Source: Octopus vulgaris
Taxonomy: Eukaryota
NCBI GenBank assembly: GCA_951406725.2
Contig: OX597839.1
Span: 744,001 to 808,000 of the forward strand
DNA length: 64,000 nucleotides
Direction: 5' to 3'
Shown: positions 12,100 through 48,580 of the stretch, piece after piece
Layout of the letters: every line of letters begins with the position of its first letter
Position numbering within the stretch: the stretch's first letter is position 1
Position numbers and translations under genes: made by a program
Notes under the pieces: generated by a model
Told to the model about the DNA's origin: nothing
Seen by the model: only the letters and a program-made list of their open reading frames with translations
The model's database searches: none

Positions 12100-12206
<107 letters not shown>

Positions 12207-12337
12207 ACGTACATACATACATACATACATACATACATACATACATACATACATACATACATACATACATAGTGGTAGTATGTAATGCGTACATTCAGAT
12301 GTTTTGGTGAATATTTCTTGCATATTTGTCATTCCAG

Positions 12338-13380: not shown

Positions 13381-13909
13381 TATAAATGGATGACTTAATA
13401 AAACAGTTTATATATAAGTGCTCCTTTATATTTTCTGTAAGTATTCCTTTTATGGAGACAAATGAAAGAAAACGTGTGAGGCTAGTCCTCTTCACAGCTT
13501 TCTTGATGTATATGAATGTACATAGGGTTTCAAATGTGGGTTTTGCCATTTCATGATTGCAATTTCATTTAAAACACATTATATAATTTTATGTATGTAC
13601 ATGTGCATGAATGCATGTCTATACCATGATTTTGACCATGGGAAAGTTACCTCAGTTTATTTGCTGGTCATGCATGAATTGTTCTCGAGTATCTTTTGAG
13701 ACGTATTTGTAATCCAAAGCCAATAATTTGGTGTGATATTTTATATAAGGAAATCAATCGATAATTAATTGGAATGATGATAATGTTACCATTAAAAAGA
13801 TCAGCAACATGCTTCTTAATGATTTTAAATGAAATAAATGCAGAATTATGTAAAAACTTATGGTTCTTGTTTTTATTTTTTAACAACATTACTCATGTGC
13901 AAGTAACAA

Positions 13910-13945
<36 letters not shown>

Positions 13946-14027
13946 TGTATGTATGTATGTATGTATGTATGTATGTATGTATGTATGTATGTTTGTATGT
14001 ATGTTTGTTTGTATGTATGTATGTTTG

Positions 14028-14075
<48 letters not shown>

Positions 14076-14076
14076 A

Positions 14077-14121
<45 letters not shown>

Positions 14122-14253
14122 TATGGTACTTAAGTCAGATGCACCAGAATTTTGTACGGTATTATTCATATAAATCTATGGGGTGATTATAATCAAAGTA
14201 AGCAACAAAGTAACCGAATTACCGAAAATATTCTTGTTGCTTACTTTGATTAT

Positions 14254-14487
14254 CTCTCTCTATATAAACGGCAGTTTGTCTGTGCGTGTTTCTGTGTGTC
14301 TGTTTGGTCGAGAATCAGAAACACAAACCGCAAACTGTCTAGGGGACGCAACTCCACCTTTTTACTCTCAAAAAAAATTTACCATCATTTTTTTCCATTT
14401 TTTGGCTATTTTTTGGCTATAACTCTCTAAAAATGCTTTATAGTTATTTCCCTTACAAACCTGAGCAACGCCGGGCGATACTGCTAG
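14254..14487 (+). mobile_element. Helitron-like non-autonomous element
   Basis: TC... start, then ...GAGCAACGCCGGGCGATACTGCTAG|T end. Confidence 0.6.
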
Positions 14488-14520
14488 TATATAAATATAT
14501 ATATATATATATTTTTTTTT

Positions 14521-14881
14521 TCTTGTTTCAGTCATTTGACTGAGGCCATACTGGAGGACCCGGGACTTATTCTTTGTAAGCCCAGTACTTATTCCATCGG
14601 TCTCTTTTGCCGAACCTCTAAGTGACGAGGACGTAAACATACCAGCATCGGTTGTCAAGCAATGCTAGGGGGACAAACACAGACACACACACACACATAC
14701 ATATATATACATATATACGACAGGCTTCTTTCAGTTTCCGTCTACCAAATTCACTCACAAGGCGTTGGTCTGCCCGATGCTATAGCCGAAGACACTCGCC
14801 CAAGGTGCTACGCAGTGGGACTGAACCCGGAACCATGTGGCTGGTAAGCAAGCTACTTACCACACAGCCACTCCTGCGCCT
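14521..14881 (-). mobile_element. SINE family 1 copy
   Basis: Matches 1505-1919 with an internal deletion. Confidence 0.85.
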
Positions 14882-14916
<35 letters not shown>

Positions 14917-14947
14917 ATATATACATACACACACACACACACACACA

Positions 14948-16084
14948 ACGGAGCATATTCGACATATTTTGCTTTATGAGTTCAATGAAGGCAACAACGC
15001 ATCGAAAAGCGCGAGGAAAATTAATGCAGCGGCATATGAGGATCTGTTTTAAACGGTAGTTCCAGAAATTTCGAACCGGAAACTACAGCCTAGAAAACGA
15101 GCCTCGTCCTAGAAGATCTGTAGCGCTTGATGAGGACGTCCTGCAAAATGTAGTGGAACAAAATTCCATCGTTGCTGTTGAGGAACTAGCAGAGAAGCTT
15201 GGATTTGGTCAGTCAACCATTCATTGACACCTGCACTGGAAGAAAAACGACCATCTTTGGTTTTTTTCCCATCAGAATAATGCTCGGCCACTAAGGCGGC
15301 GAGCTGGCAGAAACGTTAGCACGCCGGGCGAAATGCTGAGCGGTATTTCGTCTGCCGCTACGTTCTGAGTTCAAATTCCGCCGAGGTCGACTTTGCCTTT
15401 CATCCTTTCGGGGTCGATAAATTAAGTACCAGTTACGCACTGGGGTCGATGTAATCGACTTAATACTTATTTCTGTCCTTGTTTGTCCCCTCTGTGTTTA
15501 GCCCCTTGTGGGCAATAAAGAAATAGGTATTTCGTCTGCCGCTACGTTCTGAGTTCAAATTCCGTCGAGGTCGACTTTGCCTTTCATCCTTTCGGGGTCG
15601 ATAAATTAAGTACCAGTTACACACTGGGGCCGTTATAAGCGACTTAATCCGTGTGTCTGTCCTTGTTTGTCCCCTCTGTGTTTAGCCCCTTGTGGGTAGT
15701 AAAGAAATAGAATAATGCTCGGCCACATACAGCGAGGATGACATTCCAAAGGGTGGAGAAGTTTGAATGGGAAACGATGCCCAGCCTCCATATTCGTCGG
15801 ATACTGACACCCATCTGATTATTATTTATTCCGCAGTCTTCAAAATCATTTGGACGGAAATAATATGAATTCTGTAGACGAGGTCAGAATAGTACAGGAG
15901 GAGTAGTTTACATCACGGGCAAGTGAATTTTGGAAGCGGGACTTTGCAAGTTTAGCTGATAGATGGAAGAGCACTGTACAAAAATGAAGGACAGTATATT
16001 TTAGATTAAAAAAAAAACAACTTTGTCTATTTTAATTTTGAAAAATAAAAGAAGTATAAAAAATGCATTGTTTATGAGATGACC

Positions 16085-16088
<4 letters not shown>
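14948..16088 (+). mobile_element. Decayed mariner (Tc1/mariner) transposon
   Basis: EHIRHILLYEFNEGNNASKSARKIN N-terminus, HQNNARPH (cf. HDNARPH), PPYSSD.../PSDYYLFRSLQNHLDG (cf. YSPDLAPSDY). Contains deletions and frameshifts. Ends at TA. Confidence 0.8.
15294..15708 (+). mobile_element. SINE family 2 (Meta/RUDI-like central domain), two-unit copy with 18-bp TSD
   Basis: Head GGCGGCGAGCTGGCAGAAACGTTAG, B box GAGTTCAAATTCC, and CCTTTCATCCTTTCGGGGTCGATAAATTAAGTACC. TSD AGAATAATGCTCGGCCAC at 15274-15291 and 15709-15726. Confidence 0.85.
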
Positions 16089-16124
<36 letters not shown>

Positions 16125-16395
16125 CCGTGATCACCGAGACCGACCAGGCTATCTGATGTTGCTACACATCGCTGGTCACAATGCGCTTCGCATTGTTTTA
16201 GCCTTCAAATGACGCCACCCCGATGGCTAAGCGAGCAGGCCAACAGAAGAAAGAGTGAGAGAAAGTTGTGGCGAAAGAGTACAGCAGGGATCGCCAGCAC
16301 CCCCTGCCGGAGCCTCGTGGAGCTTTAGGTGTTTTCACTCAATAAACACTCACATCGCCTGGTCCGGGAATGGAAACCGCGATCCTACGACCATG
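16125..16395 (-). mobile_element. tRNA-derived SINE family 3 (partial)
   Basis: Reverse complement of the head and body of 35490-35650. Confidence 0.7.
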
Positions 16396-17214
16396 ACCAG
16401 TTGAAAAACCGCTACGAACTTTTTTACCAACCCAATATATGTGTGTGTATACATGTATATATCTATGTGAGTGTGTCTTGTACACCACTATCGTTTGATA
16501 ATCGGTGTTCATGCGTTTACGTACCCGTAAATTTAACGCTTATGTAAAAGTGCCCCATAAAATAAGTACTCTGTCGAGGAAATAATTCCTGGGGTCGATA
16601 TGTTCGACTAAAACTATGACGGGTAAAGTTAAAAAAAACACATTAAATAATATATTCCTAGATACACTATGACGGGTAAAATAAAGAAAAGGGTGAAGAA
16701 GAGTTGATGATGGATAATTAGGGTTTCTTGGTTGACCCTAGTTAACTGTCCCTTTGCAGGATTCCCCTGCTTTTCATTCACTTTTATTGTAATGTCGTTT
16801 TTAACTTTCGTTTGCTAGACAGTAATACAGCTAAGAGTTACTTCCCTGGGATTTAACAAGAGTTGTCTCCCTTGTCAAAATTACTCGATTCTTTCAAGAT
16901 ACACATTTTCATACGTTTCACTCACTCAATATGTTTCTTAAAGTTCTTCGCATTAGTCAGTTTTTTTTTTTTTCCATATATTTTACCTGTCTTTGTCATT
17001 AGACTACGACCATGCTGGAGCACTACATTAAAGGGATTAGTAAAAAAAAATCGAAATCATTTGCTGTTTTTTCAGTGTAGAACGAATTCCGCTGGGGTCT
17101 TTTCTTGAACGGCTCTCATATTGGGATGCAAACAAACCAGCATTGTGATGAAGTGATGGGGGAGGGGGAGGCATAAAAAATAAAAAAGGACATATATTTA
17201 TGTGGATGTTTATA

Positions 17215-18933
17215 TATCTCTATGTATGTATGCATGTATTTATGTTTGTATATATGTATGCATGTATGTGTGTATGTGTGTGTGTATGTATGTTTTTATG
17301 TATGTATGTATGTATATGTGCATGCATGTATGTATGTACGTAAGTACGTACGTACGTATGTATGTATGTATATATGTATGCATGCATGTATGTACGTATG
17401 TATGTATGTATGCATGTATATATGCATGCATGCATGTATATATGTATGTATGTGTGTATGCATGCATGTATGTATGTATGTATGTATGTATGTATGCATG
17501 CATGTATGTATGTATGCATGCAGCAATGCATGAGTGTATGTATGTATGTATATATGTATGTATGTTTGTATGTATGTATGTATGTATGTGTGTTTGCATG
17601 CATGCATGTATGTATGTATGTATGTATGTATGCATGTATGTATGTATGCATGCATGTATGTATGTATGTATCTATGTTTGTATGTATGTATACATGTATG
17701 CATGCATGCATGCATGTATGTATGCATGCATGCAAGTATATGTATGTACATATGCATGCATGTATGTATGTATGCATGCATGCATGTATGTACGTATGTA
17801 TGCAAGCATGCATGTATGTACGTATGTATGTATGTATGCATGTATGTATGCATGTATGTATGTATGTATGCATGCATGTATGTATGTATGCATGCATGCA
17901 TGTATGTATGTATGTATGTATGTATGTATGTATGTATGTATGTATGTGTGTATGTATGTATGTATGTATGCATGCATGTATGTATGTATGCATGCATGTA
18001 TGCATGTATGTATGTATGTATGTATGTATGTAGGTATGTATGTGTGTAAGTACGTATGTATGCATGCATGTATGTTTGTATGTTTGCATGCATGCATGTA
18101 TGCATGTATCCATGCATGCATGTATGTATGCATGCATGCGTACATGCATGTATGTATGTAAGTATGTATGTGTGTATGAATGCATGCATGTATGTAAGTA
18201 TGTGTGTTTGTATGTATGTATGTATGTATGCATGCATGTATGTATGTATATGTGTGTATGTATGTATGTATGCATGCATGTGTGTATGTATGTATGCATG
18301 CATGCATGTATGTATGCATGCATGTATGTATGTATATATGTATGAATAGCATGCATGCATGTATGTTTGTATGTATCTATGTATGTGTGTATGCATGCAT
18401 GTACCCATCTATGCATGTATGCATGCATGTATGTATGTATGTATGCATGTATGTATGTACGTATATATGTGTGTATGTATGTATGCATGCATGTATGTAT
18501 GTATGTATGTTTGCATGCATGCATGCATGTATGTATGTATCCATGTATTCATGTATGTATGTATGTATGTATGTATGCATGCACGCATGCATGTATGTTT
18601 GCATGCATGCATGCATGTATGTATGTATGTATGCATGCATGTATGTATGTATGTATCTATATATGCATATATGCATGTATGTATGCATGCATGCATACAT
18701 GTGTGTATATATGTATGTATGTGTGTATGCATGCATGCATGTATGTATATATGCATGCATGTATGTACGTATGTATGTGTGTATGTATGTATGTATGCAT
18801 GTATGCATGTATGTATGCATGTATCCATGCATGTATGTATGTATGTATGTATGTATGTATATGTTTGTGTATGTATGTATGTATGCATGTATGTATGCAT
18901 ATATGTATATATGCATGTATGAATGTATATATG

Positions 18934-18965
<32 letters not shown>

Positions 18966-19070
18966 CATGCATGCATGTATGTATGTATGTATGTATGTAT
19001 GTATGTATGTATGTATGTATGTATGTATGTATGTATGTATGTATGTGTGTATGTATGTATGTATGTATGT
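17215..19070. repeat. 1.9-kb compound (ATGT/ATGC)n microsatellite
   Basis: Directly visible. It is the source of the MYVC/HTYI pseudo-ORFs. Confidence 0.95.
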
Positions 19071-19370
19071 AAACATATCGTGTCAGTATGTCATTTACGA
19101 CGACGACGGTACCAGTTGAACCGGTTTCGAAATCGGATCCGCGATCCTACGACATCGATCCTACAACCACGAGTCCACTGCCCTAACCACATTGCACCTC
19201 CAGTATATAATTGTGAGGACGAACGAGCTCTGTTTTGTACTCTTCTACGTTCCTACTGAGACACAATTTAAATATAGATATGTTTTATTTATATTCCTGA
19301 GCGCCATACTAATACAATTCTTTGTACTCCACCTGCCTTCGTCATTTGTTTATTTTCATAAAGCTTCCCG

Positions 19371-19426
<56 letters not shown>

Positions 19427-19635
19427 TATATATACGTATCTATATTTTAATTGTATTTCAATAGGAACGAAGAAGAGTACAAAATAGAGCTCGTTCGTCC
19501 TCACAATTACCAGATACCCGGTAATGTTACGTTATGCTTCCAAGTCTAGTTTTAGGCATTCATCGGGTGTGTAGCGTTTGTTAAATACTTGTCTAACATC
19601 TCATTCTTGTTGACTCTATTTTATATAATTGTATG

Positions 19636-19732
<97 letters not shown>

Positions 19733-20094
19733 TCTACGAATCCCTTTACTGAAGTGTTCCAGCATGGCCGCAGTCTAATGACTGAGACAGACAAAAGATA
19801 TGGAATGAAAAAAAAAATTGATTAATGCGAAGAAACTTAAGAAACATACTGAGTGTGTGAAACGTACGAAAATACGTCTTAAAAGTGTTTAATAGCTATG
19901 ACAAGGGAGGCCACTCTTATTAAATCCCAGGGAAGTAACTCAGCAGAATTATCGTCTAGGAAAGGAAAATTTAAAGCGGCAGTACAGAAAAAGTGAATGA
20001 AAGGCAGGGTAATCCTGCAAAGGGACAGTTAACTAGGGTCAACCAAGAAACCCTAATTATCCATCATCAATATTCTTCACCTTTTCCTTATTTT

Positions 20095-20495
20095 ACCCGT
20101 CATAGTGTATCTAGGAATATATTATCTAATGTGTCTTTTACATTTTATTGATGTTTTTTAGCCCAAGAATCGACCTTATCAAGCTGAATTATCATTAACT
20201 CTTTTCCACCCGTGACCTCACGACTGTTTATCAGGCATGGTGTATCCAGGAATGCATTATTTAATGTATCTTTACCTTTTATTGTTGTTGTTTAGACCCA
20301 GATTCGACCTGATCAAGCTGAGTTATCAATAAAACATTTCCACTCGTGACTATCACGACTGTTTATCAGGCACAGTGTGTCTAGGAATACATAATTTAAT
20401 GTATCCTTACATCTTTGTTGTTGTTGTTGTTGTTTAACCTCAGATTCGATCTGATGAATCTGAGTTGTCATTAGATCTCTTCAATCCGTGACCAT
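20095..20495. repeat. Three diverged tandem copies of a ~135-bp unit
   Basis: CA(T/C)(A/G)GTGT(A/G)TC(T/C)AGGAAT recurs at 20101, 20236 and 20371. Confidence 0.75.
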
Positions 20496-21276
20496 CACGT
20501 TCATTTATAATCTCATGTGTCCTGTTTTCTAATGCATCATTTTCTCGGCAACATGTTTAAATGGAGCAGTACCCCCATGAAATTTCTTAAATTTTCAATG
20601 TTGATGAAATTTCAACCATGGGTAATTGACACACATCAAGAAGTATTCTCAAAGTTTCCACTTCACACGAGGATTCTAAGACACCCTAATGGGAGCCTTA
20701 ACTCCCAAATTTTAGTCATTTCTTTATGATCCAAAAGTAGGTCAAAAATACTGAATGGATCTTTACGAAATTTGGAAATTATATTCTATGCATAAGGGCC
20801 ATAATCCCCATGACAATTCATATATTTTTGCAGTTGACGAAATTTTAACCATAGATATTAGACACAAATGAAGTAATACTTATAAAATTTCATCTTCTTA
20901 CAAGTTAGAAAGACCCCTCCATGGGGACTTAACACCCACAATTTTGTCATTTTATCTAAGTAAAGACGAATACAGTTGTACTCTTGGAAGCTGTAGGGTC
21001 ACCCGAGCATAAAAGATGAGCATTATTTGTAATTCAATGGTACAACAGTGTAAGAGTTTGCTTTGACATACAACTAGATCCAGTTTTTGAATCCATAAAG
21101 AACATACACAAACCTTGTTTTATATATTAAGATATATATACAAATATATACACACACATATATATATATGTATCTTTATACACACACACATATGTATGTT
21201 TATATATAAATATAAATGAGAGAGAGAGAGTGAGAGTGAGGGAATGAGAGTGGAAGCGAGGGTGTGAAGGCATTAA

Positions 21277-22805
21277 GAACGTAACGGCAGACGAAATACC
21301 TATTTCTTTACTACCCACAAGGGGTTAAACACAGAGGGGACAAACAAGGACAGACAAACGGATTAAGCCGATTACATCGACCCCAGTGCGTAACTGGTAC
21401 TTAATTTATCGACCCCGAAAGGATGAAAGGCAAAGTCGACCTTGGCGGAATTTGAACTCAGAACGTAACGGCAGACGAAATACCTATTTCTTTACTACCC
21501 ACAAGGGGTTAAACACAGAAGGGACAAACAAGGACAGACAAACGGATTAAGCCGATTACATCGACCCCAGTGCGTAACTGGTACTTAATTTATCGACCCC
21601 GAAAGGATGAAAGGCAAAGTCGACCTTGGCGGAATTTGAACTCAGAACGTAACGGCAGACGAAATACCTATTTCTTTACAACCCACAAGGGGTTAAACAC
21701 AGAGGGGACAAACAAGGACAGACAAACGGATTAAGCCGATTACATCTACCCCAGTGCGTAACTGGTACTTAATTTATCAAGCCCGAAAGGATGAAAGGCA
21801 AAGTCGACCTTGGCGGAATTTGAACTCAGAACGTAACGGCAGACGAAATACTATTTCTTTACTACCCACAAGGGGTTAAACACAGAGGGGACAAACAAGG
21901 ACAGACAAACGGATTAAGCCGATTACATCGACCCCAGTGCGTAACTGGTACTTAATTTATTAAGCCCGAAAGGATGAAAGGCAAAGTCGACCTTGGCGGA
22001 ATTTGAACTCAGAACGTAACGGCAGACGAAATACCTATTTCTTTACTACCCACAAGGGGTTAAACACAGAGGGGACAAACAAGGACAGACAAACAGATTA
22101 AGCCGATTACATCGACCCCAGTGCGTAACTGGTACTTAATTTATCAAGCCCGAAAGGATGAAAGGCAAAGTCGACCTTGGCGGAATTTGAACTCAGAACG
22201 TAACGGCAGACGAAATACCTATTTCTTTACTACCCACAAGGGGTTAAACACAGAGGGGACAAACAAGGACAGACAAACGGATTAAGCCGATTACATCTAC
22301 CCCAGTGCGTAACTGGTACTTAATTTATCAAGCCCGAAAGGATAAAAGGCAAAGTCGACCTTGGCAGAGTTTGAACTCAGAACGTAACGGCAGACGAAAT
22401 ACCTATTTCATTACTACCCACAAGGGGTTAAACACAGAGGGGACAAACAAGGACAGACAAACGGATTAAGCCGATTACATCGACCCCAGTGCGTAACTGG
22501 TACTTAATTTATCAAGCCCGAAATGATGAAAGGCAAAGTCGACCTTGGCAGAATTTGAACTCAGAACGTAACGGCAGACGAAATACCTATTTCTTTACTA
22601 CCCACAAGGGGTTAAACAAGAGCAGACAAACGGATTAAGCCGATTACATCGACCCCAGTGCGTAACTGGTACTTAATTTATCGACCCCGAAAGGATGAAA
22701 GGGAAACTCGACCTCGGTGGAATTTGAACTCAGAACGTAACGGCAGACGAAATAGAGCTACGCATTTTGCCTGGCGTGCTAATGTTTCTGCCAGCTCGCC
22801 GCCTA
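21277..22805 (-). repeat. SINE family 2 tandem array: one head plus eight ~184-bp body units
   Basis: GAACGTAACGGCAGACG recurs at 21277, 21461, 21645, 21829, 22012, 22196, 22380, 22564 and 22733. The head occurs only at ~22750-22805. Confidence 0.92.
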
Positions 22806-23152
22806 ATAGATTGTACGTGATAATGAAACTCTTTTAAAAGTAGTCAAATGCCACAGCTACAACATTGAAATCGTTGCCTCAATGAGGTCAGTTAAGCACA
22901 TCACAAAGTACACACTGAAAGGAAATGACTAAGCTACCATTCAAATAAACAATGATAATGAAGTTAGTCAATATCTAATGGGTAGGTGTACTGGACCATC
23001 TGAAGTAGTTGCATCCATTTTAGGATTTTCAATTCATGAAAGAGCACCTGCAATAGGGAGACTGCAACAGATCAGAACAATACAGTTCTATATTTAAGAG
23101 ATGAGGAATTATGTACATTATTTACATTTACATTATTTACGCTTATACCCAT

Positions 23153-23245
23153 GGGTATATGGCATAGTGGTTAAGAGTGCAGGCTACTAACCCCAAGATT
23201 CCGAGTTCGATTCCAGGCAATGGCCTGAATAATAATAATAATAAT
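23153..23245 (+). mobile_element. Simple tRNA-like SINE with (AAT)n tail
   Basis: TGGCATAGTGG A box, GAGTTCGATTCC B box, then directly (AAT)n. Relatives at 55157, 57878 and 61001. Confidence 0.7.
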
Positions 23246-23299
23246 TTTTTTCTTTTTACATATGTAAAAACTGCCATAGAACTGCTATTATAAGAAGGT

Positions 23300-24125
23300 C
23301 AGGCTTGTGTAGGATGGAAGATTGCAAAGATAAAGCACTATACAAGAAATTAAAGACGAATGAAACTGAAAATAGGTGGGTAAAGAAAAGAATGCATGGT
23401 CAATTTCATAGCGATGTTGAAGATAAGACAGATAGAGAAAAAGATGGCTGTGGATGACTAAAAGTGATTTAAAACCGGAAACGGAGGCCCTAATCTGTGC
23501 TGCCCAAGAGCAGGCACTAAGAACAAACTACATAAAATACAGCATAGACAACACATCAAAAAGTGATAAGTGCAGAATTTGTGGACAAACTGGTGAAGCC
23601 GTATGGCATATTACCAGCCAATGTACACCACTAGCCAAGAAGGAACATTAGAAACGCCACGACCAGCCAGGCTGGTCCATTGGACACTTTGCAACAAGTA
23701 TGGACTTGGCAGAGCAAAAAATTGGTACAACCACAAACCTGAAAGCATTATCAAAAATAGAAATGCAAAGATCCTATGGGATTTTATGATTCAGTGCGAC
23801 CATGAGATAGAGAATAGGAAGCCAGAAATAGTCTTAATTGAGAAAGAATACAAACTACGCTGGATCATAGATATAGCATGCCCAGCTGACAACAAGATAT
23901 GCAATAAGGAAGAAAGAAAAGTCGAAAGATATGACAGGTTAGCAAGGGAAGTTAAGCAGTTGTGGTCAATGAAAAAGGTGGTAGTAGTACCAATAATTGT
24001 CAGAGCCCTGGGAACAGTGAGTAAAAATCTCGAGAAGTACATGGAACAAATAGGGGCTGCAATAAGGGTGGAGCACTTGCAGAAAACAGCACTGCTTGGA
24101 ACCGCTGGAATATTCCAGAAGGTGC
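23300..24125 (+). mobile_element. R4/Dong-type LINE fragment (Zn knuckle plus REL endonuclease)
   Basis: KPETEALICAAQEQALRTN, CRICG...HITSQC, KILWDF...KPEIV...IIDIACP...KVERY...LQKTALLGTA. Confidence 0.85.
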
Positions 24126-24813
24126 CAGTCAAGACAGTGCTGGCATCGACCACGTTCGGATGGTGCTTTTTACATGCCACCAGCTTTGGGGCCAGTCAGG
24201 CAGCACTGGCATCAGCCACGCTTGAATGGTGCCTTTTATGTACTACTGGCATGGGTACCAATCAGGTGGCACTGGCATCGGCCATGAATACAATTTCACT
24301 TGACTCAACAGGTCTTCTCAAGCACAACATTTATATATACATATATATATATAAACAAAAGTACAAAATAGTACCAACATTACTAGAAATAAGAGTTTAA
24401 AAAATGACTCAAAAAGCCAAAAAAGCACAATCTGGTACTATTTTGTACCCTTGTTTATTAATTTGCCTTTAAGTTTTAATTGCTAATGGTCCATCTATAT
24501 GATAATATATTTATATATTGTATTATTTTATTTATACCATATATATATAGTGAGAGAGAGAGAGAGAAATATTTTTGGATCGTGGAAATATTTTTGAAAT
24601 ACTCGCGAACATATGTTTATGAGTTCCGTACTGAAAAGATTCAACATGACAAAGAGTGTTACAAGACTGGCTCTTTGAAATTCAGGTCCACTCATTTTTG
24701 GAACAATGTGCGTGAGTTGGTCAAGGACACAACGCGCCGTTGGTAATCGAACTCACGGCCTTGAGATCGTGAGCCGATTACCCTAACCACTAATCCACGC
24801 GCCTTCATTTAAT

Positions 24814-24859
<46 letters not shown>

Positions 24860-24949
24860 GCACACACAGACGCATACTTACATACGTACCTCCGTACATA
24901 CATACATACACACGTAAGTACGTACGTACGTACGTACTCTCTGCATTCA

Positions 24950-25600
24950 ATGAAACAGTGGCTCACAATTTGTTTGCTCTGCCAGCACTCATACCAACAT
25001 TTGGGTTGCTTGATTGGACTCTAGATGTGAAAACCCGAAAGGTACTAAGAAGCACATATAATTTCAACATAAATAGTGACATAGACCGCCTCTACCAAAA
25101 ACGAAAACAAGGCGGCAGAGTCTTAACATCGATCCAAAATGCGTTTGAATGCCGCATCATATCCCTTCAGCAACATCTTTTAACCAGAAAGTGTAGAAGT
25201 GCATCTCTTGACCAAGTTTGCATACATGAGGCTGATAATATCATAAGTCATGGAAGGCAGCTCCTTGAGCAACACACTTTGTCTGATAACCTATAATACA
25301 TGGCAAAAGAAGTCACACGACTCTAACGCAACATATCAGATGAAAGGATGAGCCTATATGAGCAGAATACTATGCATGGATATATCAGTAAGAAGCACCG
25401 TGGTGATAGGAACATCGGTCATTAAAGCAGTTTATCATCGACCAATAGCTGGATTACTACCCCCCCACTTTGAAGGGCAAGCGTTTGCAATCGAGGAAGA
25501 GGAAATACCAACGATGTACATGATGCAAAAAAGGGATACACAAGCAGGAAAAAGCAGTAAAATGTAACAACCAATGCAGACAGAGAGGGGAATATGTTGA
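24950..25600 (+). mobile_element. Decayed R4/Dong-type LINE fragment
   Basis: LLDWT...KTRK...SDIDRLY...GGR is collinear with the ORF at 50358-51926. Confidence 0.7.
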
Positions 25601-25883
25601 ATATACTCATAACTGATACACCACCACAACAGCCACCACCGCAACCACCACCGCCACCACCACCGCCGCCACCACCACCACCACCACCACCACCACCGCC
25701 ATCACCACCAAAACCATCGCCACCACCAACAACGCCGACTCCACAACCACCACCACCGCCACCGCCACCATGGCCAGCAACATTTCAGCACCATCTCGTA
25801 TACATAAACACACACACATACATATGTATATATGTGTGTGTATGTATATATATATATAGATATATATAAGTATATATACATAT

Positions 25884-25925
<42 letters not shown>

Positions 25926-25927
25926 AT

Positions 25928-26025
<98 letters not shown>

Positions 26026-26045
26026 TTCTTTATAGCCCGCGTAAC

Positions 26046-26277
26046 AGAAAGACGAAATACTTATTTCGTTATTACCCACATAGAGGGGACAAACAAGAAC
26101 AGACAAACGGATTAAGTCGATTATATCGACCCCAGCGTGTAACTGGTACTTAATTTATCGACCCCGAAAGGATGAAAGGCAAAGTCGTACTCGGCGGAAT
26201 TCGAACCCAGAACGTAACGGCAGACGAAATACCGCAAAGCATTTCGCCCGGCGTGCTAACGGTTCTGCCAGCTCGCC
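26046..26277 (-). mobile_element. SINE family 2 single-unit copy
   Basis: Same head and body as 15294-15708. Confidence 0.85.
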
Positions 26278-26821
26278 TATGATATATATGAGTGAAAGAG
26301 AGAGAGACAGAAAGGGAGAGAGAGACAGAAAGAGAGGGAGATGAGAAAAGAGTGATAGAGAGAGAGAAAGAGTGATAGAGAGAGAAAGTTGGGGTGTGAT
26401 GTTGTTGGGGATTGTTATGTGATCTGTTCTGTATCTGTCTCCGTCAGAAAGTGAACTCGGAGCTGATATCTGTGTAAATGTTTTGATGTTTCTTGATTAC
26501 TCTCGGTTTATGGAAACATGTCGTTGGCCAATATGGACGGCATCTTGGGGCAAAATGGAATCTAAGGAGAGAGAGAGAGAGAAAGAGAGGGAGATGGATA
26601 GGTAGATAGAGAGAGAGAGGGAGAAGGAGAGAGAGAAATGAAGAAGTAGACGGCGGTGGTGGTGGTGGTGGCAGAGTTGTCCGTACTAGTCTTTCAGAAT
26701 GAGGCTGTCGTCTGGATTCTTCCAAATCATCGGGAGGGGAAGGCGGAGTTGGCGACCATTGCTCAAATCTGCACCTGTCTGGCTCCTCCCCTTCTGCGCT
26801 CCTTCATAAAGAGAAGGGGAG

Positions 26822-29800
26822 GGAGGTGATGGTTATGGATGTGGCGGTGGTGGGTGGGGTGGTTATGGCAGTGGTGATGGTGGCTATGGTGGTGGATGTG
26901 GTGGTGGCAGTGGCGTTGTTGGCGGTGGCGGTGGTGGCTGTGGTGATGGTGGTGGTGGTGACGGTGGCTATGGTAAAGGTGGCGGTGGTGACGGTGGCTA
27001 TGGTAGTGGTGGAGGTGGGGGCGGTGACTATGGTGGTGGTGGTGGATGTGGTGGTGGCGGTGGCGTTGTTGGTGGTGGCGGTGGTGGCTGTGATGATGGT
27101 GGCGGTGGTGACGGTGACTATGGTGGTGGTGGTGGTGAGGGCGGTGGCTTTGGTGGTGGTGGTGGATGTGGTGGTGGCGGTGGCGTTGTTGGCGGTGGCG
27201 GTGGTGGCTGTGATGATGGTGGCGGTGGTGACGGTGGCTGTGGTGGTGGTGGTGGTGGTGTAGGTGGCTATGGTGGTGGTGGAGGTGGGGGCGGTGACTA
27301 TGGTGGTGTTGGTGGATGTGGTGGCGGCGGTGGCGTTGTTGGCGGTGGCGGTGGTGGCTGTGATGATGGTGGCGGTGGTGACGGTGGCTGTGGTGGTGGT
27401 GGTGGTGGGGGCGGTGGCTATGGTGGTGGTGGTGGATGTGGTGGTGGCGGTGGCGTTGTTGGCGGTGGCGGTGGCGTTGTTGGCGGTGGCGGTGGTGGCT
27501 GTGGAGTTGTTGGCAGTGGCGGTGGTGGCTGTGGTGAAGGTGGCGGTGGTGACGGTGGAGGTGGGGGCGGTGACTATGGTGTGGTGGAGGTGGGGGCGGT
27601 GACTATGGTGTTGGTGGTGGATGTGGTGGTGGCGGTGGCGTTGTTGGTGGTGGCGGTGGTGGCTGTGGTGATGGTGGCGGTGGTGACGGTGACTATGGTG
27701 GTGGTGGTGGTGGGGGCGGTGGCTATGGTGGTGGTGGTGGATGTGGTGGTGGCGGTGGCGTTGTTGGCGGTGGCGGTGGTGGCTGTGATGATGGTGGTGG
27801 TGGTGACGGTGACTATGGTGGTGGTGGTGGTGGGGGCAGTGGCTATGGTGGTGGTGGAGGTGGGGGCGGTGACTATGGTGGTGTTGGTGGATGTGGTGGC
27901 GGCGGTGGCGTTGTTGGCGGTGGCGGTGGTGGCTGTGATGATGGTGGCGGTGGTGACGGTGACTATGGTGGTGGGTGGTGGTGGGGTGGGGGCGGTGGCT
28001 ATGGTGGTGGTGGTGGATGGTGGCGGTGGCGGTGGGCGGTGGCGGTGGTGGCTGTGGATGGTGGTGGTGGTGACGGTGACTATGGTGGTGGTGGTGGTGG
28101 GGGCGGTGGCTATGGTGGTGGTGGAGGTGGAAGCGGTGACTATGGTGGTGTTGGTGGATGTGGTGGCGGCGGTGGCGTTGTTGGCGGTGGCGGTGGTGGC
28201 TGTGGTGATGTTGGCGGTGGTGACGGTGGCTATGGTGGTGGTGGAGGTGGGGGCGGTGGCTATGGTGGTGGTGGTGGATGTGGTGGTGGCGGTGGCGTTG
28301 TTGGTGGTGGCGGTGGTGGCTGTGGTGATGGTGGCGGTGGTGACGGTGGCTATGGTGGTGGTGGAGGTGGGTGCGGTGGCTATGGTGGCGGTGGCGTTGT
28401 TGGTGGTGGCGGTGGTGGCTGTGGTGATGGTGGCGGTGGTGACGGTGACTATGGTGGTGGTGGAGGTGGGTGCGGTGGCTATGGTGGTGGTGGTGGTGGT
28501 GGTGGCGGTGGCGGTGGCGTTGTTGGCGGTGGCGGTGGTGGCTGTGGTGATGGTGGTGGTGGTGACGGTGGCTATGGTAAAGGTGGCGGTGGTGACGGTG
28601 GCTATGGTAGTGGTGGAGGTGGGGGCGGTGACTATGGTGGTGGTGGTGGATGTGGTGGTGGCGGTGGCGTTGTTGGTGGTGGCGGTGGTGGTTGTGATGA
28701 TGGTGGCGGTGGTGACGGTGACTATGGTGGTGGTGGTGGTGGGGGCGGTGGCTTTGGTGGTGGTGGTGGATGTGGTGGTGGCGGTGGCGTTGTTGGCGGT
28801 AGCGGTGGTGGCTGTGATGATGGTGGCGGTGGTGACGGTGGCTATGGTGGTGGTGGAGGTGGGGGCGGTGGCTATGGTGGTGGTGGTGGATGTGGTGGTG
28901 GCGGTGGCGTTGTTGGCGGTGGCGGTGGTGGCTGTGGTGATGGTGGCGATGGTGACGGTGGCTATGGTGGTGGTGGAGGTGGGGCGGTTGCTATGATGGC
29001 GGTGGTGGATGTGGTGGTGGCGGTGGTGTTGTTGGCGGTGGCGGTGGTGGCTGTGGTGATGGTGGTGGTGATGACGGTGGCTATTGTGGTGGTGGAGGTG
29101 GGGGCGGTGGCTATGGTGGTGTTGGTGGATGTGGTGGCGGCGGTGGCGTTGTTGGCGGTGGTGGTGGTGGCTGTGATGATGGTGGCGGTGGTGACGATTA
29201 CTATGGTGGTGGTGGTGGTGGGGGCGGTGACTATGGTGGTGGTGGTGGATGTGGTGGTGGCGGTGGCGTTGTTGGCGGTGGCGGTGGTGGCTGTGATGAT
29301 GGTGGTGGTGGTGACGGTGGCTATGGTGGTGGTGGTGGTGGGGGCGGTGGCTATGGTGGTGGTGGAGGTGGGGGTGGTGACTATGGTGGTGTTGGTGGAT
29401 GTGGTGGCGGCGGTGGCGTTGTTGGCGGTGGCGGCGGTGGCTGTGGTGATGGTGGCGGTGGTGACGGTGGCTATGGTGGTGGTGGAGGTGGGGGCGGTGG
29501 CTATGGTGGTGGTGGTGGATGTGGTGGTGGCGGTGGTGTTGTTGGCGGTGGCGGTGGTGGCTGTGGTGATGGTGGCGGTGATGACGGTGGCTATTGTGGT
29601 GGTGGAGGTGGGGGCGGTGGCTATGGTGGTGTTGGTGGATGTGGTGGCGGCGGTGGCGTTGTTGGCGGTGGCGGTGGTGGCTGTGATGATGGTGGTGGTG
29701 GTGACGGTGGCTATGGTGGTGGTGGAGGTGGGGGCGGTTGCTATGATGGCGGTGGTGGATGTGGTGGTGGCGGTGGTGTTGTTGGCGGTGGCGGTGGTGG

Positions 29801-32800
29801 CTGTGGTGATGGTGGCGGTGATGACGGTGGCTATTGTGGTGGTGGAGGTGGGGGTGGTGGCTATGGTGGTGGTGGTGGATGTGGTGGCGGCGGTGGCGTT
29901 GTTGGCGGTGGTGGTGGTGGCTGTGATGATGGTGGCGGTGGTGACGATTACTATGGTGGGTGGTGGTGGTGGGGGCGGTGACTATGGTGGTGGTGGTGGA
30001 TGTGGTGGTGGCGGTGGCGTTGTTGGCGGTGGTCGTGGTGGCTGTGATGATGGTGGTGGTGGTGACGGTGACTATGGTGGTGGTGGTGGTGGGGGCGGTG
30101 GCTATGGTGGTGGTGGGGGTGGTGAGGTGGTGGTGGTGGTGGATGTGGTGGCGGCGGTGGCGTTGTTGGCGGTGGCGGTGGTGGCTGTGGTGATGGTGGC
30201 GGTGGTGACGGTGGCTATGGTGGTGGTGGAGGTGGGGGCGGTGGCTATGGTGGTGGTGGTGGATGTGGTGGTGGCGGTGGCGTTGTTGGTGGTGGCGGTG
30301 GTGGCTGTGGTGATGGTGGCGGTGGTGACGGTGACTATGGTGGTGGTGGTGGTGGGGGCGGTGGCTATGGTGGTGGTTGTGGATGTGGTGGTGGCGGTGG
30401 CGTTGTTGGCGGTGGCGGTGGTGGCTGTGATGATGGTGGTGGTGGTGACGGTGACTATGGTGGTGGTGGTGGTGGGGGCGGTGGCTATGGTGGTGGTGGT
30501 GGTGGGGGTGGTGACTATGGTGGTGTTGGTGGATGTGGTGGCGGCGGTGGCGTTGTTGGCGGTGGCGGCGGTGGCTGTGGTGATGGTGGCGGTGGTGACG
30601 GTGACTATGGTGGTGGTGGTGGTGGGGGCGGTGGTGGTGGTGGTGGTTGTGGATGTGGTGGTGGCGGTGGCGTTGTTGGTGGTGGCGGTGGTTGCTGTGA
30701 TGATGGTGGCTGTGGTGACGGTGGCTATGGTGGTGTTGGAGGTGGGGGCGGTGGCTATGGTGGTGGTGGTGGATGTGGTGGTGGCGGTAGCGTTGTTGGC
30801 GTTGGCGGTGGTCGCTGTGGTGATGGTGATGGTGGTGACGGTGGCTGTGGTGGTGGTGGAGGTGGGGGCGGTGGCTATGGTGGTGTTGGTGGATGTGGTG
30901 GTGGCGGTGGCGTTGTTGGCGGTGGCGGTGGTGGCTGTGATGATGGTGGCGGTGGTGACGGTGGCTATGGTGGTGGTGGAGGTGGGGGCGGTGGCTATGG
31001 TGGTGGTGGTGGATGTGGGGGTGGCGGTGGCGTTGGTGGTGGTGGTGGCGTTGTTGGTGGTGGCGGTGGTGGCTGTGGTGATGGTGGCGGTGGTGACGGT
31101 GGCTGTGGTGGTGGTGGAGGTGGGGGCGGTGGCTATGGTGGTGGTGGTGGATGTGGTGGTGGCGGTGGCGTTGTTGGCGGTGGCGGTGGTGGTGGTGGTG
31201 GTGGTGGTGGCGGTGGCGTTGTTGGTGGTGGCGGTGGTGGCTGTGGAGATGGTGGCGGTGGTGACGTCCCTGTGGTGGTGGTGGAGGTGGGGGCGGTTGC
31301 TATGGTGGTGGTGTTGGATGTGGTGGTGGCGGTGGTTGGCGGTGGCGGTGGTGGCGGTGGTGTGGTGATGGTGGTGGTGGTGACGGTGGCTATGGTAAAG
31401 GTGGCGGTGGTGACGGTGGCTATGGTGGTGGTGGAGGTGGGGGCGGTGACTATGGTGGTGGTGGTGGATGTGGTGGTGGCGGTGGCGTTGTTGGTGGTGG
31501 CGGTGGTGGCTGTGGTGATGGTGGCGGTGGTGACGGTGGCTGTGGTGGTGGTGGAGGTGGGGGCGGTGACTATGGTGGTGGTGGTGGATGTGGTGGTGGC
31601 GGTGGCGTTGGTGGTGGTGGTGCGGTGGTGGCTGTGGTGATGGTGGCGGTGTTGACGGTGGCTATGGTGGTGGTGGAGGTGGGGGCGGTGGCTATGGTGG
31701 TGGTGGAGGTGGGGGCGGTGACTATGGTGGTGTTGGTGGATGTGGTGGTGGCGGTGGCGTTGTTGGCGGTGGTGGTGGTGGCTGTGATGATGGTGGCGGT
31801 GGTGACGGTGACTATGGTTGTGGTGGTGGTGGGAACGGTGGCTATGGCGGTGGTGGTGGAGGTGGTGTCGGTGGCTATGGTGTTGGTGGTGGTGGGGGCG
31901 GTGACTATGGTGATGGTGGTGGATGTGGTGGTGGCTGTGGTGATGGTGGCTGTGGTGACGGTGGTTATGGTGGTGGTGGAGGTGGGAGCGGTGGCTATGG
32001 TGGTGGTGGAGGTGGGGGCGGTGGCTATGGTGGTGTTGGTGGATGTGGTAACGGTGGCGTTGTTGGCGGTGGCGGTGGTGGCTGTGATGATGGTGGCGGT
32101 GGTGACGGTGGCTATGGTGGTGGTGGAGGTGGGGGCGGTGGCTTTGGTGGTGGTGGTGGATGTGGTGGTGGCGGTGGCGTTGTTGGCGGTGGCGGTGGTG
32201 GCTGTGGTGATGGTGGCGGTGGTGACGGTGGCTATGGTGGTGGTGGAGGTGGGGGCGGTGGCTATGGTGGTGGTGGTGGATGTGGTGGTGGCGGTGGCGT
32301 TGTTGGCGGTGGCGGTGGTGGCTGTGGTGATGGTGGCGGTGATGACGGTGGCTATTGTGGTGGTGGAGGTGGGGGCGGTGGCTATGGTGGTTGTGGTGGA
32401 TGTGGAGGGGGCGGTCGCGTTGTTGGCGGTGGCGGTGGTGGCTGTTGTGATGGTGGCGGTGGTGACGGAGGCTATGGTGGTGGTGGAGGTGGGGGCGGTG
32501 GCTATGGTGTTGGTGGAGGTGGGGGCGGTGGCTATGGTGGTGTTGGTGGATGTGGTGGTGGCGGTGGTGTTGTTGGCGGTGGCGGTGGTGGCTTTGGTGA
32601 TGATGGCGGTGGTGACGGTGGCTATTTTGGTGGTGGAGGTGGGGGCGGTGGCTATGGTGGTGGTGGTGGATGTGGTGGGGGTGGTGCGTTGTTGGCGGTG
32701 GCGTTGGTGGCTGTGGTGATGGTGGCGGTGGTGACGGTGGCTATTGTGGTGGTGGAGGTGGGGGCGGTGTCTATGGTGGTGGTGGTGGATGTGGAGGGGG

Positions 32801-33600
32801 CGGTCGCGTTGTTGGCGGTGGCGGTGGTGGCTGTTGTGATGGTGGCGGTGAAGGTGGGTGGTAGGGTGGTGGTGGAGATGGAGGCGGTGGCTATGGTGGT
32901 GGTGGTGGATGTGGTCGTGGCGGTGGCGGTGGTGGCTGTGGCGATGGTGGCGGTGGTGACGGTGGCTATGGTGGTGGTGGAGGTGGGGGCGGTGGCTATG
33001 GTGGTGGTGGAGGTGGGGGGGGTGGCTATGGTGGTGGTGGTGGTGGTGGTGGTGGCGGTGGCGTTGTTGGCGGTGGCGGTGGTGGCTGTGGTGATGATGG
33101 CGGTGGTGACGGTGGCTATTGTGGTGGTGGAGGTGGGGGCGGTGGCTATGGTGGTGGTGTTGGATGTGGTGGTGGCGTAGGCGTTGTTGGCGGTGGCGGT
33201 GGTGGCTGTGGTGATGGTGTCGGTGGTGGCTGTGGTGATGGTGTTGGATGTGGTGGGGGCGGTCGCGTTGTTGGCGGTGGCGGTGGTGGCTGTGGTGATG
33301 GTGGCGGTGATGACGGTGGATATGGTGGTGGTGGCTATGGGGGTGGTGATGGATGTGGTGGTTGCGGTGGCGTTCTTGGCGGTGGCGGTGGTGGCTGTGG
33401 TGATGGTTGCGGTGGTGACGGTGGCTATGGTGGTGGTGGTGGTGGATGTGGTGGATGTGATTGGGGCGGTGGCGTTGTCGGCGGTGGCGGTAATGGCTGT
33501 GGTGAGGGTGGCGGAGGTGATGGCGCTGGCTATGGTGGTGTTGAGGGATGTGGTGGTGGCGGTGGCATTGTTGGCGGTGGCGGTTGTGGCTGTGGTGATT
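26822..33600 (+). repeat. GGN-triplet array (120-bp unit, 150-bp variants); possible Gly/Tyr/Cys-rich structural protein exon
   Basis: The unit translates as GDGGYGGGGGGGGGYGGGGGCGGGGGVVGGGGGGCGDGGG. About ten frame breaks, mostly in G runs, and one TAG at 32862. No ATG or signal peptide seen. The repeat is certain; coding status is not. Confidence 0.85.
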
Positions 33601-33602
33601 TT

Positions 33603-34930
33603 ATTCGGTGGTTGCCATTTGGTCTGAAAGTTGCACCTGCAATATTTCAGCAGGTTCTGGATGCGATGTTGGTGGACTGTCAATTTGCAATTCAGGACAA
33701 ATTATAGATAAAAATGGAGGACGACCTGACCCGTCGAAGGCAGACGCAATTAAAAAATAAGCTTCCTCCAACTAACATAGGGACATTACAAGCTTTTCTT
33801 GGCCTACCAAATTACATACCAAACATGTTTGAATTGAGTGCTCCACTTTATAATTTTCTAAAGAAAGACGTCAAATGGAATTTGTCAAATAAGTGTCAAA
33901 TGGCGTTTCAGGATATTTTGTTGCTGGCTCATTTCGATCCTGCAGCGGCGTTTGTTGTAGCTTCTGCCGCTTCTGAATACGGTGTAGGATCAGTTTTTTT
34001 ACGCAAGTATAAAGTCGGTAATATGAAGGTGGTAGTTCTTGCCTCACGTGCTCTGATTGCAGCAGAAAAAAAAACTACAGTCAGAAAGAGAATAAAACTC
34101 TAGCGATCATTTTTGCCGTGAAGAAATTTCGTAGACTTCTCCACGGTAGACGTTTTCGGCTCTAGACGGACCACCGATCCTTACTATCAATTTTCGGATC
34201 GAAGACAGGAATTGCTACTCATACAGCTAACAGATTAATATGTAGGGGTACAATATTGTTAAATTACAACTTTAAGATGGAATACATTCCTTCTAAAAAA
34301 ATTAGCCATGCGGATTGTTTATCTGGGCGAATTCCGGAGAATGCGGAACCGCTAGAAGATATGGTGATAGCCGCATTAAATCAGAATAGGAAGTTAAAAA
34401 CGTTATGCGTAATGTCATTCAGGAGTTGCCAGTGACTGTACAAGATATGAAAAGTAAAACAGCAGAGGGCAAATACGTCTTAAAAATGAAAGAAACCTTG
34501 AAAACTAAACAAAAGGGAAACACGAATGCGAACCATTTTTCATTCTTCGACAATGTATTAATTTACGCACGAAAAGTGGTAGTACCACCCGCACTACAGA
34601 AACAGATATTACAGGAATTTCATAGTGTAAGCCCCTTTCAAAGTATACAAGAATGGTAAAGAAAGTTGGCAGGATGGCAAGACTAAAAGAATGGAAACAT
34701 GGGGTATTTAATAAAAGGTAAACGACACCTAAATCAATTAAAAATCAGACATGCAGAAGAAGTGAAGGAAATTCCAGTGAAGTGTTTTATCATATGTCCA
34801 ATGTGCCAGCATCAAAATAAATTGGGCCTAAAAGGAGCAGAAACAGAAAGCGTAAACAGACTCAACATTCATAAATAATTCCCAAGCGAAAAGGCACTGA
34901 ACTTAGGGAAGCAAAATTTCAAAGAAGGGA
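33603..34930 (+). mobile_element. Decayed Ty3/Gypsy pol (RT-RNase H-integrase remnants)
   Basis: RWLPFGLKVAPAIFQQVLDAML, GQIIDKNG.RPDPSK, LQAFLGL.NY, LAHFDP...ASEYGVG...ASRAL, AIIFAVKKF...TDHRSL, KVVVPPALQKQILQEFH. The YLDD segment is deleted. Confidence 0.88.
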
Positions 34931-35850: not shown

Positions 35851-37421
35851 TCCATTAAAAGGTATCGTTTGGTTAATCAAGTCGTAAGGTATCGGTTGTT
35901 GTTTCGTGTATAGTTCATGGAGAGTTTCTTGGATCGTTACGTTGTTGTTACCCAGCTTCGTTATATATTTTATTGTTACTACGCGGTTATCGTGTAAACA
36001 ACTATCATATATCAATAGCGACGATACTACAACAATTGGTGACGTGTAACAATATATAGAAAAAATAGAGCAGAGTGAATCTGATAAGAAACTGAGAAAT
36101 GGTGTGCTTCTAATGAGATGCCCTTGACCAATTCTTTAACGTGAAGCACGGAGGCTGCATCGTCACGGCTAAGGGATGTGCTCTGGGGCACAAATGAAAG
36201 GAAGCTGTTCAATGGGGTCGAGTAACGGAGACGCAACGTGGCCACAAAGACACAATTCGATTTTTGGTACTTCATGTCAAATACATGTTATACGATCTCA
36301 AGTAGATGTGTACGGTTTTTCAGCTCGATTTTGGGGACACATAACGGACCGGATTACAGAATAGATTACACTGTTCCCTTCGGCAACCTGCCGCACTTCA
36401 TGGAGGGGGAAGGTAATAATAGCTGATAAAATATGGGAAGCAATGGCTGGAAGTACGCAGATGGGGGGTTAAATTGCCTGATTTGGACGTTTGGTCCTAC
36501 GGGCTTTAATTTTATACACCAAATTTTGTCGCCGACCTCTTGATAGATGTCCAGACCAACTGACAGCAAAAACGAAAACACCTCAGTTTGGTGAGATGAA
36601 GAGCGGTTGAACTGCCGAGAAAGGACGTAAATGAGGTGGGCCAATCTTCGGCCCAAACTCTGCTAAAGGCTGCTCTCAAAAAGTTGGAATTGGTGTTGGC
36701 TAAGGAGTTTGTACTGATGGTCCATTAAACAAGCTTGCTTTGAGGATGCCTGTAACTGAAAAAGGTAGATAGGGAGGTGGGGTTGCCCCATTGGTTAGAA
36801 TGATTACAGTTTTATGGTATTTCCACATGTAGCTCTCCGAGTTCTACTTGCGTTTGAGGAATTATAAAAAATTTAAATATTTTGTTTCTCTGTATTTGAT
36901 ATTTTATTGTTTACACAATTTTATGTAACATCGTTTTTATTGTATTGTATCGCCCTTTACTCTACTCTTTTCGATTACTTTAAACCCAGTGCTCAACTGC
37001 TTCTTATTTCATCAACCCCAAAAAGTAGTCGACCTCGAATGGATTTGAACATAGAATGTAAAAACAGACGAAATGCTGCGAAGCATTTTTCCCAGTGTGC
37101 TAACCATTCCTCCCACTCTCCATTTTCACTCTACCTGTATACTAATCTTGTCATCGTACGAAAATGTTCAATTTGTAGCAAGCACTCAGTTAAATTGCCT
37201 GATTTGGACGGCCGGTCGGTCCTACGGGCTTTAACGAGTTCGTGATTTGAGGATATCGTCTTCCATACTTGTCACAAGTCTTTAAGGTCCTGTAAAGGGA
37301 TTTCGGATATTTTCTCGTATGTGGCTAAGCAGACAACATAGGAACGCACAGTAGCACATTTATACATAAATACAGTTAAGCATTGCAAAGGAAAAATAAA
37401 CGATAGCATTCTCCTGCAACA

Positions 37422-46849: not shown

Positions 46850-48580
46850 TTCCTCATCACTGAATGTTTGATTCCGTCCCCTTCAAATACCCTTAGGTAT
46901 TGGAGCTCTCCGGCGGTTCTAACTCCTTTATGACATTCTGCTAGTTAAGATTAACATCGGATGTTTCTGTTAATTTTCCCTTGATAAAGGTAGCTTCTGC
47001 ACATTGTTTGGTGCTAGTTTTGAGTATGTTGTTGTCCTTGAAGTATCTAATGCGCTTTTCATACCTTAGCACATCCCTTTTGATTGATAGTTTCTATGGC
47101 GGTATTGATGTCAAGTATAGTTTTAATATTATATGTTTTCTTTAATTTTCGGATTTTTGTTGGTTTGATAGTTTTGTCAAACGTAAGGGTTTCTAAACAT
47201 TCTATGTCAGACCTATTTAGCTGAATCTGGTATTGAATACGCTCTTGCCAAGTAAGCTTTTGTGGGAATGTTGTCGTTTTCTAATCTTTTCACCACATAG
47301 AATCGCTGAGATTTTCTCGGATGCAAAGTACAGGTGGTTGAAATGTGTAATATCAACATCATTAGTTGAAATTATATCCTTAAGTGCAAGGCGGATTTCA
47401 CAAATTACTTTCAGGTTTTGGTTAGAATTGCGAAGTTCATTCGCACTGGTTTCCTTAATTTTCAGCCATTCAATCATGATTTGATATTTTAGATCATGTA
47501 GTTCTGTTGGGTCAATTTCTGTGTGACTTTCTTCGTCTTTTTGATTAAATAAGTACCACTTAAGTACTTGGTGTATCTAACTGAGTGTCCCACACCCCAC
47601 AGCTATCAGATTAAAATGACAATTACCGATAATGCTTGAAGAGCTCTTGAAGAGCTCTTGCTATTACAAGCAATGATGAGTTTTGTAAGTGTTCTCTCTC
47701 TACATTTGTACCAATCTTTTTGAGCCACGTTGGTAGTTGAGTGCTGATATTATAAGCGCACCAATCACTATTGTTATTACGTCCACTTCCTCCATTTTTC
47801 CACAACCTGTGTCCAACCAATGTCAGATTTACGACATTTAACCTGATGATTACACCGCATTATTGCATCCCACAGGAGTTTGCAATCATTCTCAGAAACT
47901 CCTTCTAAGGTTTGGTCATACTACCTCTCTGATGTTTCTTGGCCATAATTTCCACAGAGCTCCCAATGGATCATTCCTGCAACGTTGTTATGTCATCTTT
48001 TGTAACTACGTTGTGCCAATGTCGGGCATCCACTAACAACGTGCTATACTGCTTCACCTCTCACACCACACGGTCTGCATTTGTCGCTCTCAGTTGTGTT
48101 ATCATTTTTGCACTTCACATAGTTTGTCCTTAATACTTGTTCTTGTTTCTGTGTTCAGGTCACACCTCCGCATTCATAACCACCAGCCTTCTCTATCTGC
48201 CTCGTCATGCAAAATAGCAGTACATTATTTCTCTTTCCATACCATTTCGTTTTTTGTGTCCTTTTCCTCTTTGAATTTTTCTTTCTAAGCACAATTATCA
48301 ATTTTGATGATACTGGACTTCTTCACATGTTCTAGCAATGGTTTCATGGCATTTTATTATATACAACCTAATCTGTTTTCTGTTGCTTCGACACAATCAC
48401 GATAACTAATCAAACTTCTCCAATCCTTTCTTCTGGACAAGTATGCAAGTATAACCTATCAGCGTCACTCTTGGATGCAATGCTCCGTGCGTTGCCAACA
48501 GTTTTCGTGTATTCGTATCCATACACATCAATTCTTTCATTTGCCAGACACGTGAGGAATACATTTCTATCTTACACGCA
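46850..48580 (-). mobile_element. Old R4/Dong-type LINE fragments
   Basis: DTNTRKLLATHGALHPR and HLQNSSLLVIARAL are homologous to motifs of the intact-looking copy. Confidence 0.55.

Follow-up and report, generated by a model that had tools for sequence, protein, structure and literature searches.

The route by which short tandem units give rise to longer units, and these in turn to higher-order repeats, has been described (PMC5615363), and repeats make up about 66% of the Octopus vulgaris genome according to PMC13282606. The suckerins are described as structural proteins in which Pro-bounded Ala/Thr/His modules (M1) alternate with Gly/Tyr/Leu modules (M2), and sucker ring teeth are, according to the same review, absent from octopuses (PMC9999432). 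Silk-like structural proteins have been defined by a domain with at least 25% Gly together with a signal peptide (PMC4944945). The window analysed here, a whole stretch of 64,000 nucleotides from O. vulgaris, holds a GGT-derived tandem array at about 26816..33600 on the + strand. It resembles the megasatellites of Candida glabrata in being several kb long with a unit near 120 bp, but those lie inside adhesin genes as described in PMC2566889, whereas no host gene was found for the array. A first-pass annotation had read the locus either as an exon of a giant structural protein or as a codon-like satellite, and it is the latter that our results support. We consider it likely that the array is a non-coding, microsatellite-derived minisatellite or short satellite with higher-order structure.

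The 120-bp unit consists of four 30-bp subunits (A, B, C and D) with 21–26 of 30 bases in common, and both ends of the array are degenerate. The triplet parse of 26814-33602 gave 2,256 triplets, close to the approximately 2,250 first counted, and the 40-codon unit seen at that time is also the commonest spacing between GTT-GTT anchors, 25 of 47 intervals. Ten-triplet blocks, 205 in all, account for 2,050 of the triplets. The subunits are arranged in a mosaic order, ABCD, ABBCD and ABCCD among others, and array copies at offsets of 575–3,390 bp have exact matches of 123–178 bp. One complete unit is found at 29418..29537 (+), where the Gly-register translation equals the consensus peptide. The GC content is about 65%, as compared to 25–45% across the rest of the window, and G makes up 57% of the bases. 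A head-to-tail unit of more than 10 bp, here with periods of 30 and 120 bp, is what characterizes minisatellites and satellites, and the recurrence of A, B, C and D as ABCD is that of a higher-order repeat, in which diverged monomers are co-amplified as a larger unit. The likeness to the systems described in PMC5615363 thus includes the unit length, the longer unit made from diverged shorter ones, the co-amplified adjacent monomers and the adjoining transposon debris; the difference is that the backbone of the array is a Gly codon, so that it mimics an open reading frame. Our literature searches gave no description of the 30/120-bp family, nor did PMC13282606 as far as consulted, whose supplementary repeat library could list it.

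In the Gly register the array reads 74.1% Gly, 7.5% Asp, 5.9% Cys, 5.8% Val and 4.8% Tyr, and the 108 Tyr mostly follow runs of Gly. As many as 2,118 of the 2,256 triplets are either GGT or GGC themselves or differ from one of these by a single base. This register has just one codon each for Ala, Leu, Pro and Ile, and none for His, Gln, Thr or Met. About 1 kb from the array, at 25619..25770 on the - strand, there is a degenerate (GGT)n microsatellite of 152 bp that reads with the same GVVG, GDG and GGC vocabulary. Its changes at codon positions 1, 2 and 3 are 6, 7 and 12 (51 triplets), as compared to 4, 6 and 13 in the array unit (40 triplets). Of 500 triplet shuffles of this microsatellite, 79 score as high against the unit as it does itself. 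It could therefore be used as an independent control, albeit just one and a short one, and as far as the shuffle test goes it seems unrelated to the array by descent. Most likely, the protein look of the array is due solely to the fact that GGT codes for Gly.

Probably the array started as a (GGT)n microsatellite, in which point changes of the types G>T, G>A and T>C would yield TGT, GTT, GAT and GGC, and then TAT and GAC triplets. Such changes would have become fixed in a 30-bp monomer, of which four diverged forms would have been co-amplified as the 120-bp unit. The expansion probably occurred by triplet slippage together with unequal exchange or conversion of stretches of 30 bp and 120 bp, and the array may be transcribed as a non-coding RNA.

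The differences between the copies show no codon-level constraint, as in a minisatellite. Variants were scored against the unit consensus in the 205 blocks, leaving out about 200 triplets beyond these, and in the Gly register 25 of the 80 distinct single-base variants were synonymous, as compared to 108 of 360 opportunities (30%). The pN/pS is 0.94 with a Fisher p of 0.78, a comparison of modest power resting on 80 distinct variants, 43 of them singletons, which may include errors. G>T changes are equal at codon positions 1 and 2 (12/36 and 12/34), G>A changes are similar (8/36 and 12/34), and with multi-base codon changes added the synonymous share is 25/92. Variants common to at least two blocks, 37 of the 80, show a synonymous lean (15/37, p 0.11), and the occurrence-weighted share is 85/236, which would give p 0.047 if the copies were independent, but they are not. 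Constraint can be weak in low-complexity structural proteins, and a pN/pS near 1 is compatible with coding.

The stops noted at first can be seen in the array. The Val register has stops at 27261 and 33178, and the only Gly-register stop inside the array, a TAG at 32862..32864 (+), lies within a locally garbled unit. Third-position variety, few stops and triplet-sized length changes do not go beyond what is expected by chance, and third-position variety, Val-register stops and triplet-sized length changes were rejected as evidence of coding. Stops arise from just 8 of the 360 single-base changes to the unit, and approximately 2 are expected among the 92 distinct variants. The open Gly frame is therefore uninformative, since the composition of the array predicts few stops anyway. 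By the codon table there is no stop triplet in the Thr-rich register of the minus strand in the whole array, and the His-rich frames of that strand are open across long stretches. Triplet slippage and exchange among the 30-bp subunits would by construction alter the length by multiples of three, and since the expansion processes act in this way several registers can stay open without selection for a protein.

Part of the interval 26640-34600 is contained in 14 of the 24 public sequencing runs listed, and the best DNA run holds 0.51 of its words, 75% of the distinct 31-mers being array words. The flank is near-identical in the DNA runs compared, which together with the word share implies that the interior of the array is in large part different from the runs. 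Turnover, assembly error and drop-out of G-rich sequence would each give such a difference and are not separable here. Contigs of runs X1, X5, X10 and X11 were compared on 33545-34600. The summed contig depth on the terminal unit is 31,378 in X1, 28,643 in X5 and 2,721 in X11, as compared to about 134, 100 and 19 for the contigs matching the locus itself. The window has 40 sites within 5 mismatches of the terminal unit, and the depth excess over the locus is larger, so the family probably has more copies than the array displays, the excess being a hint and not a copy number. X10, which is only guessed to be RNA and has a word share of 0.24, also has contigs on the terminal unit, with a summed depth of 3,162 there and 0–8 on the flank, a measure that cannot rank the parts. 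In this run 13 of the 30 bins of 33545-34600 were covered and none in 33617-33832, holes that prove nothing, and X16 and X17 from the same study have a share of 0.00. On the guess that X10 is RNA, the unit family may be transcribed, which is a lead only. None of the runs listed as containing part of the interval is declared as RNA, a blank counted neither for nor against expression.

The parse of the array gave 12 register breaks and one compensating pair near 27980. All 13 break sites tested are absent from the best paralogue, i.e. they are private to one copy. If breaks were shared as substitutions are, this would have a probability of 3e-4 for 13 events, or about 0.007 when the 8 clusters formed by the breaks are counted, with the reservation that recurrent substitutions inflate sharing. 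One cluster of private indels is found at 27960..28060 (+), with sites near 27980, 28015, 28034 and 28056, and is probably the result of a poor assembly consensus; paralogue comparison revealed a second one with three indels at 31266..31365 (+). The G reported missing at 28981 relative to the paralogue near 29730 is indeed missing. The statement that breaks fall mainly in G runs was right only in part: one of 13 lies in a G5 run and about seven gain or lose a G in a GG doublet, but five are multi-base. At 34066-34074, 460 bp from the array, the window has a run of nine A, one more than X1, X5 and X11, and a homopolymer error or a private allele is possible at this site. The private breaks and the extra A strengthen the early suspicion of long-read indel errors, and to judge from the sequence many of the frame breaks are probably assembly errors. 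Without such errors the array may read as a single, nearly open frame of about 2,260 codons. Mended breaks would not demonstrate coding, however, and the refutation first proposed, that frameshifts are confirmed as genomic and no spliced transcript exists, therefore discriminates poorly.

Upstream of the array the Gly register is shut by a TAA at 26807, and as had been noted it lacks a start, there being no Met in this register. The TAA had escaped the first-pass annotation, as had the four 30-bp subunits and the in-frame continuation into a Gypsy remnant. A protein would therefore need splicing. The AAAG ending at 26811, pointed out as a possible acceptor, is present in a pyrimidine-rich stretch at 26780..26813 (+) with the candidate acceptors AAG (26809-11) and GAG (26811-13), but it is judged weak. 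A purine at position -3, as here, makes a weak acceptor. Positions 26788-26819 form an 8-bp inverted repeat. No credible signal exon was found in 12520-26806 by a crude scan for an ATG, a hydrophobic core and a donor; all of its 10 matches lie within microsatellite, LINE-like or TA-rich DNA. The nearest gene is represented by its last exons at 2952-12519 (+), with ankyrin repeats and two RING fingers (Pfam Ank and zf-C3HC4_3), and we take it to resemble a mind bomb-type E3 ligase.

At the other border the Gly register continues in frame into 35 codons of a 5'-truncated Ty3/Gypsy reverse transcriptase (RT) and ends with a TAG at 33705. This is the beginning of a decayed Ty3/Gypsy pol remnant adjoining the array, identified with Pfam at 33601..34660 (+, the right border is approximate), in which RT_RNaseH_2 matched with E 1e-8 and RVT_1 below the cut-off with E 0.02. 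The RNase H-like piece lies at about 33888-34088, and the region of the RT catalytic motif is missing near 33693. A PDB search with the 35-residue tail gave nothing better than a viral enzymatic polyprotein at E 0.76. In both X5 (33555-33749) and X11 (33568-33749) a contig runs across the junction and the stop without differences. Loose ends of contigs show that other copies of the element diverge before 33612 and after 33693, and past 33693 one such end in X5 reads by eye as a YLDD-type catalytic motif, which is absent from the window. Since the other copies continue differently and the motif is absent, the remnant is a dead one that was cut short where the array begins or ends against it. 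Pfam revealed no upstream half of the element among 62 flank fragments, 2 of which gave 3 sub-threshold matches. The array may have grown next to the remnant or may have taken the place of its 5' part. In X1, X5 and X11 the contigs that match 33663-34600 exactly have 2–4 times the depth of the diverged copies; this block may be duplicated in the genome, contig depth not being a copy number.

Other repeats are also found in the window. The large tandem expansions among them, i.e. a TATG-derived array, a 184-bp unit and a unit of about 3 kb, count towards the minisatellite reading. The degenerate TATG/CATG array covers 1.85 kb (17221-19071) with 3 register changes, and was used as a control. The 184-bp unit, presumably SINE-derived, forms a tandem array of 8.1 copies with 96% matches at 21276-22754 and occurs in an inverted two-copy version at 15342-15710. 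The longest unit, about 2.6–3.2 kb, is present in about four tandem copies with 85–94% identity at 52829-63572, and about 3 tandem copies of a 135-bp unit are found at 20101-20499. A LINE ORF that is almost complete, with domains RT and zf-RVT but broken by stops and a frame change, lies at 48455-51926 (+) and presumably resembles the R4/Dong clade. Decayed LINE-like pieces were also seen at about 23300-24150 and 24950-25560, and two short frames at 36369-36724 (-), without a Pfam match, have, judged by eye, the look of a degraded gag piece of a retrotransposon.

The likeness to loricrin, shematrin and suckerin that had been suggested holds for the Gly content and the GGY and GGC motifs, but the other hallmarks fail. 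If translated, the array would resemble loricrin in having Gly/Cys-rich tandem repeats in a single long exon, but as compared to loricrin as described in PMC2192642 it would be about five times longer and lack a start codon (no Met, and the TAA at 26807). Instead of the Gly/Ser/Cys-rich composition it has 74% Gly, 5.9% Cys and 0.4% Ser (22% in loricrin), with Asp and Val replacing Ser. Gln/Lys-rich cross-linking flanks are missing: the array is bordered by a stop on one side and an RT fragment on the other, and itself contains 3 Lys and no Gln. The GnY motifs of the shematrins are found in the array, but not Leu/Ile after GnY, no signal peptide was found by the crude scan, and the in-frame end is derived from Gypsy RT and not of the RKKKY type, which a spliced last exon could possibly supply (PMC3896809). 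The GGY tripeptide is shared with suckerins and the squid beak His-rich proteins (PMC9999432). Pro-bounded Ala/Thr/His modules are absent, with Pro 1, Ala 1, Leu 1, Thr 0 and His 0, and in contrast to the beak proteins as described there the array has no GHGXY and no His in the Gly register (PMC9999432). As to the silk-like proteins, the Gly content is far above their limit (74%), and for the signal peptide the 10 matches mentioned above, which come from a crude scan and not a real predictor, are not credible.

No protein with the unit in the Gly frame was found by word-indexed searches of 174–557 aa at E 1e-20 and of 30–173 aa at E 1e-3, nor among 1.84 billion representatives, which can hide cluster members. 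In a local calibration a same-unit protein scored 180 bits, three units alone gave E 3e-28 and 0 of 20 shuffles were reported. Generic Gly-rich proteins are filtered out, so the blank searches concern the peptide of the 120-bp unit and not Gly-rich proteins in general. The ESM Atlas gave no usable match for the Gly frame, and scores of up to 0.77 for the Thr frame, which we did not count.

The first alternative is a secreted structural protein of Gly, Asp, Cys, Val and Tyr, of which the array would be a giant + strand exon with its acceptor near 26812 and with breaks due to assembly errors. The private and clustered breaks and the homopolymer discrepancy near the array agree with this, as do the single in-register stop and the regularly spaced GGY and GGC motifs, but the residues are limited to neighbours of GGT and the control microsatellite has a matching vocabulary. 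The slight synonymous lean among shared variants has to be weighed against the pN/pS and the lack of a synonymous excess, and the X10 contigs on the terminal unit, if they are RNA, against a weak AAG acceptor with its purine at -3, the absence of a credible signal exon in the crude scan, a C-terminus that would consist of 35 codons of a dead retrotransposon, the missing hallmarks and the lack of a matching protein. Altogether we find a giant exon improbable. The same low probability is given to the possibility that the error-free array is spliced and translated as a protein of about 2,260 codons, rich in Gly, Tyr, Cys and Asp, born de novo from a microsatellite and with its C-terminus taken from the dead Gypsy RT.

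Somewhat more doubtful still is an origin from a coding Gly-rich repeat expressed at another locus, of which the array would be a non-functional derivative. Contig loose ends carry unit variants absent from the window, and one of these, in X10, which may be RNA, has a 114-letter continuation with 5 differences in its first 30 letters to the closest match in the window. Such variants are explained equally well by other alleles or by further non-coding arrays, and the 1.84 billion representatives and the word-indexed set (30–557 aa) held no protein with the unit. Coding on the minus strand, for a Thr-rich mucin-like (or His-rich) protein, is very unlikely, because the open Thr register, which closes at 26804 right past the array, and the long His-rich frames are met by a lack of synonymous excess in the Thr register (26/92 as compared to 113/360), by the absence of a Met from the upstream stop to the array in ORF 32652-33701, and by the lack of a Thr-frame homologue at E 1e-5 among proteins of 174–557 aa, where a same-unit protein would score 272 bits.

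As a minisatellite the array is of little consequence. Its use is as a worked warning: arrays derived from GGT pass for ORFs of the loricrin or shematrin type in several registers, and neither an open frame nor length changes by triplets are evidence of coding in them. If the array did prove to be translated, it would be one of the rare cases in which the origin of a structural protein gene in a microsatellite can be traced, and also a candidate for some cephalopod material as yet unidentified.
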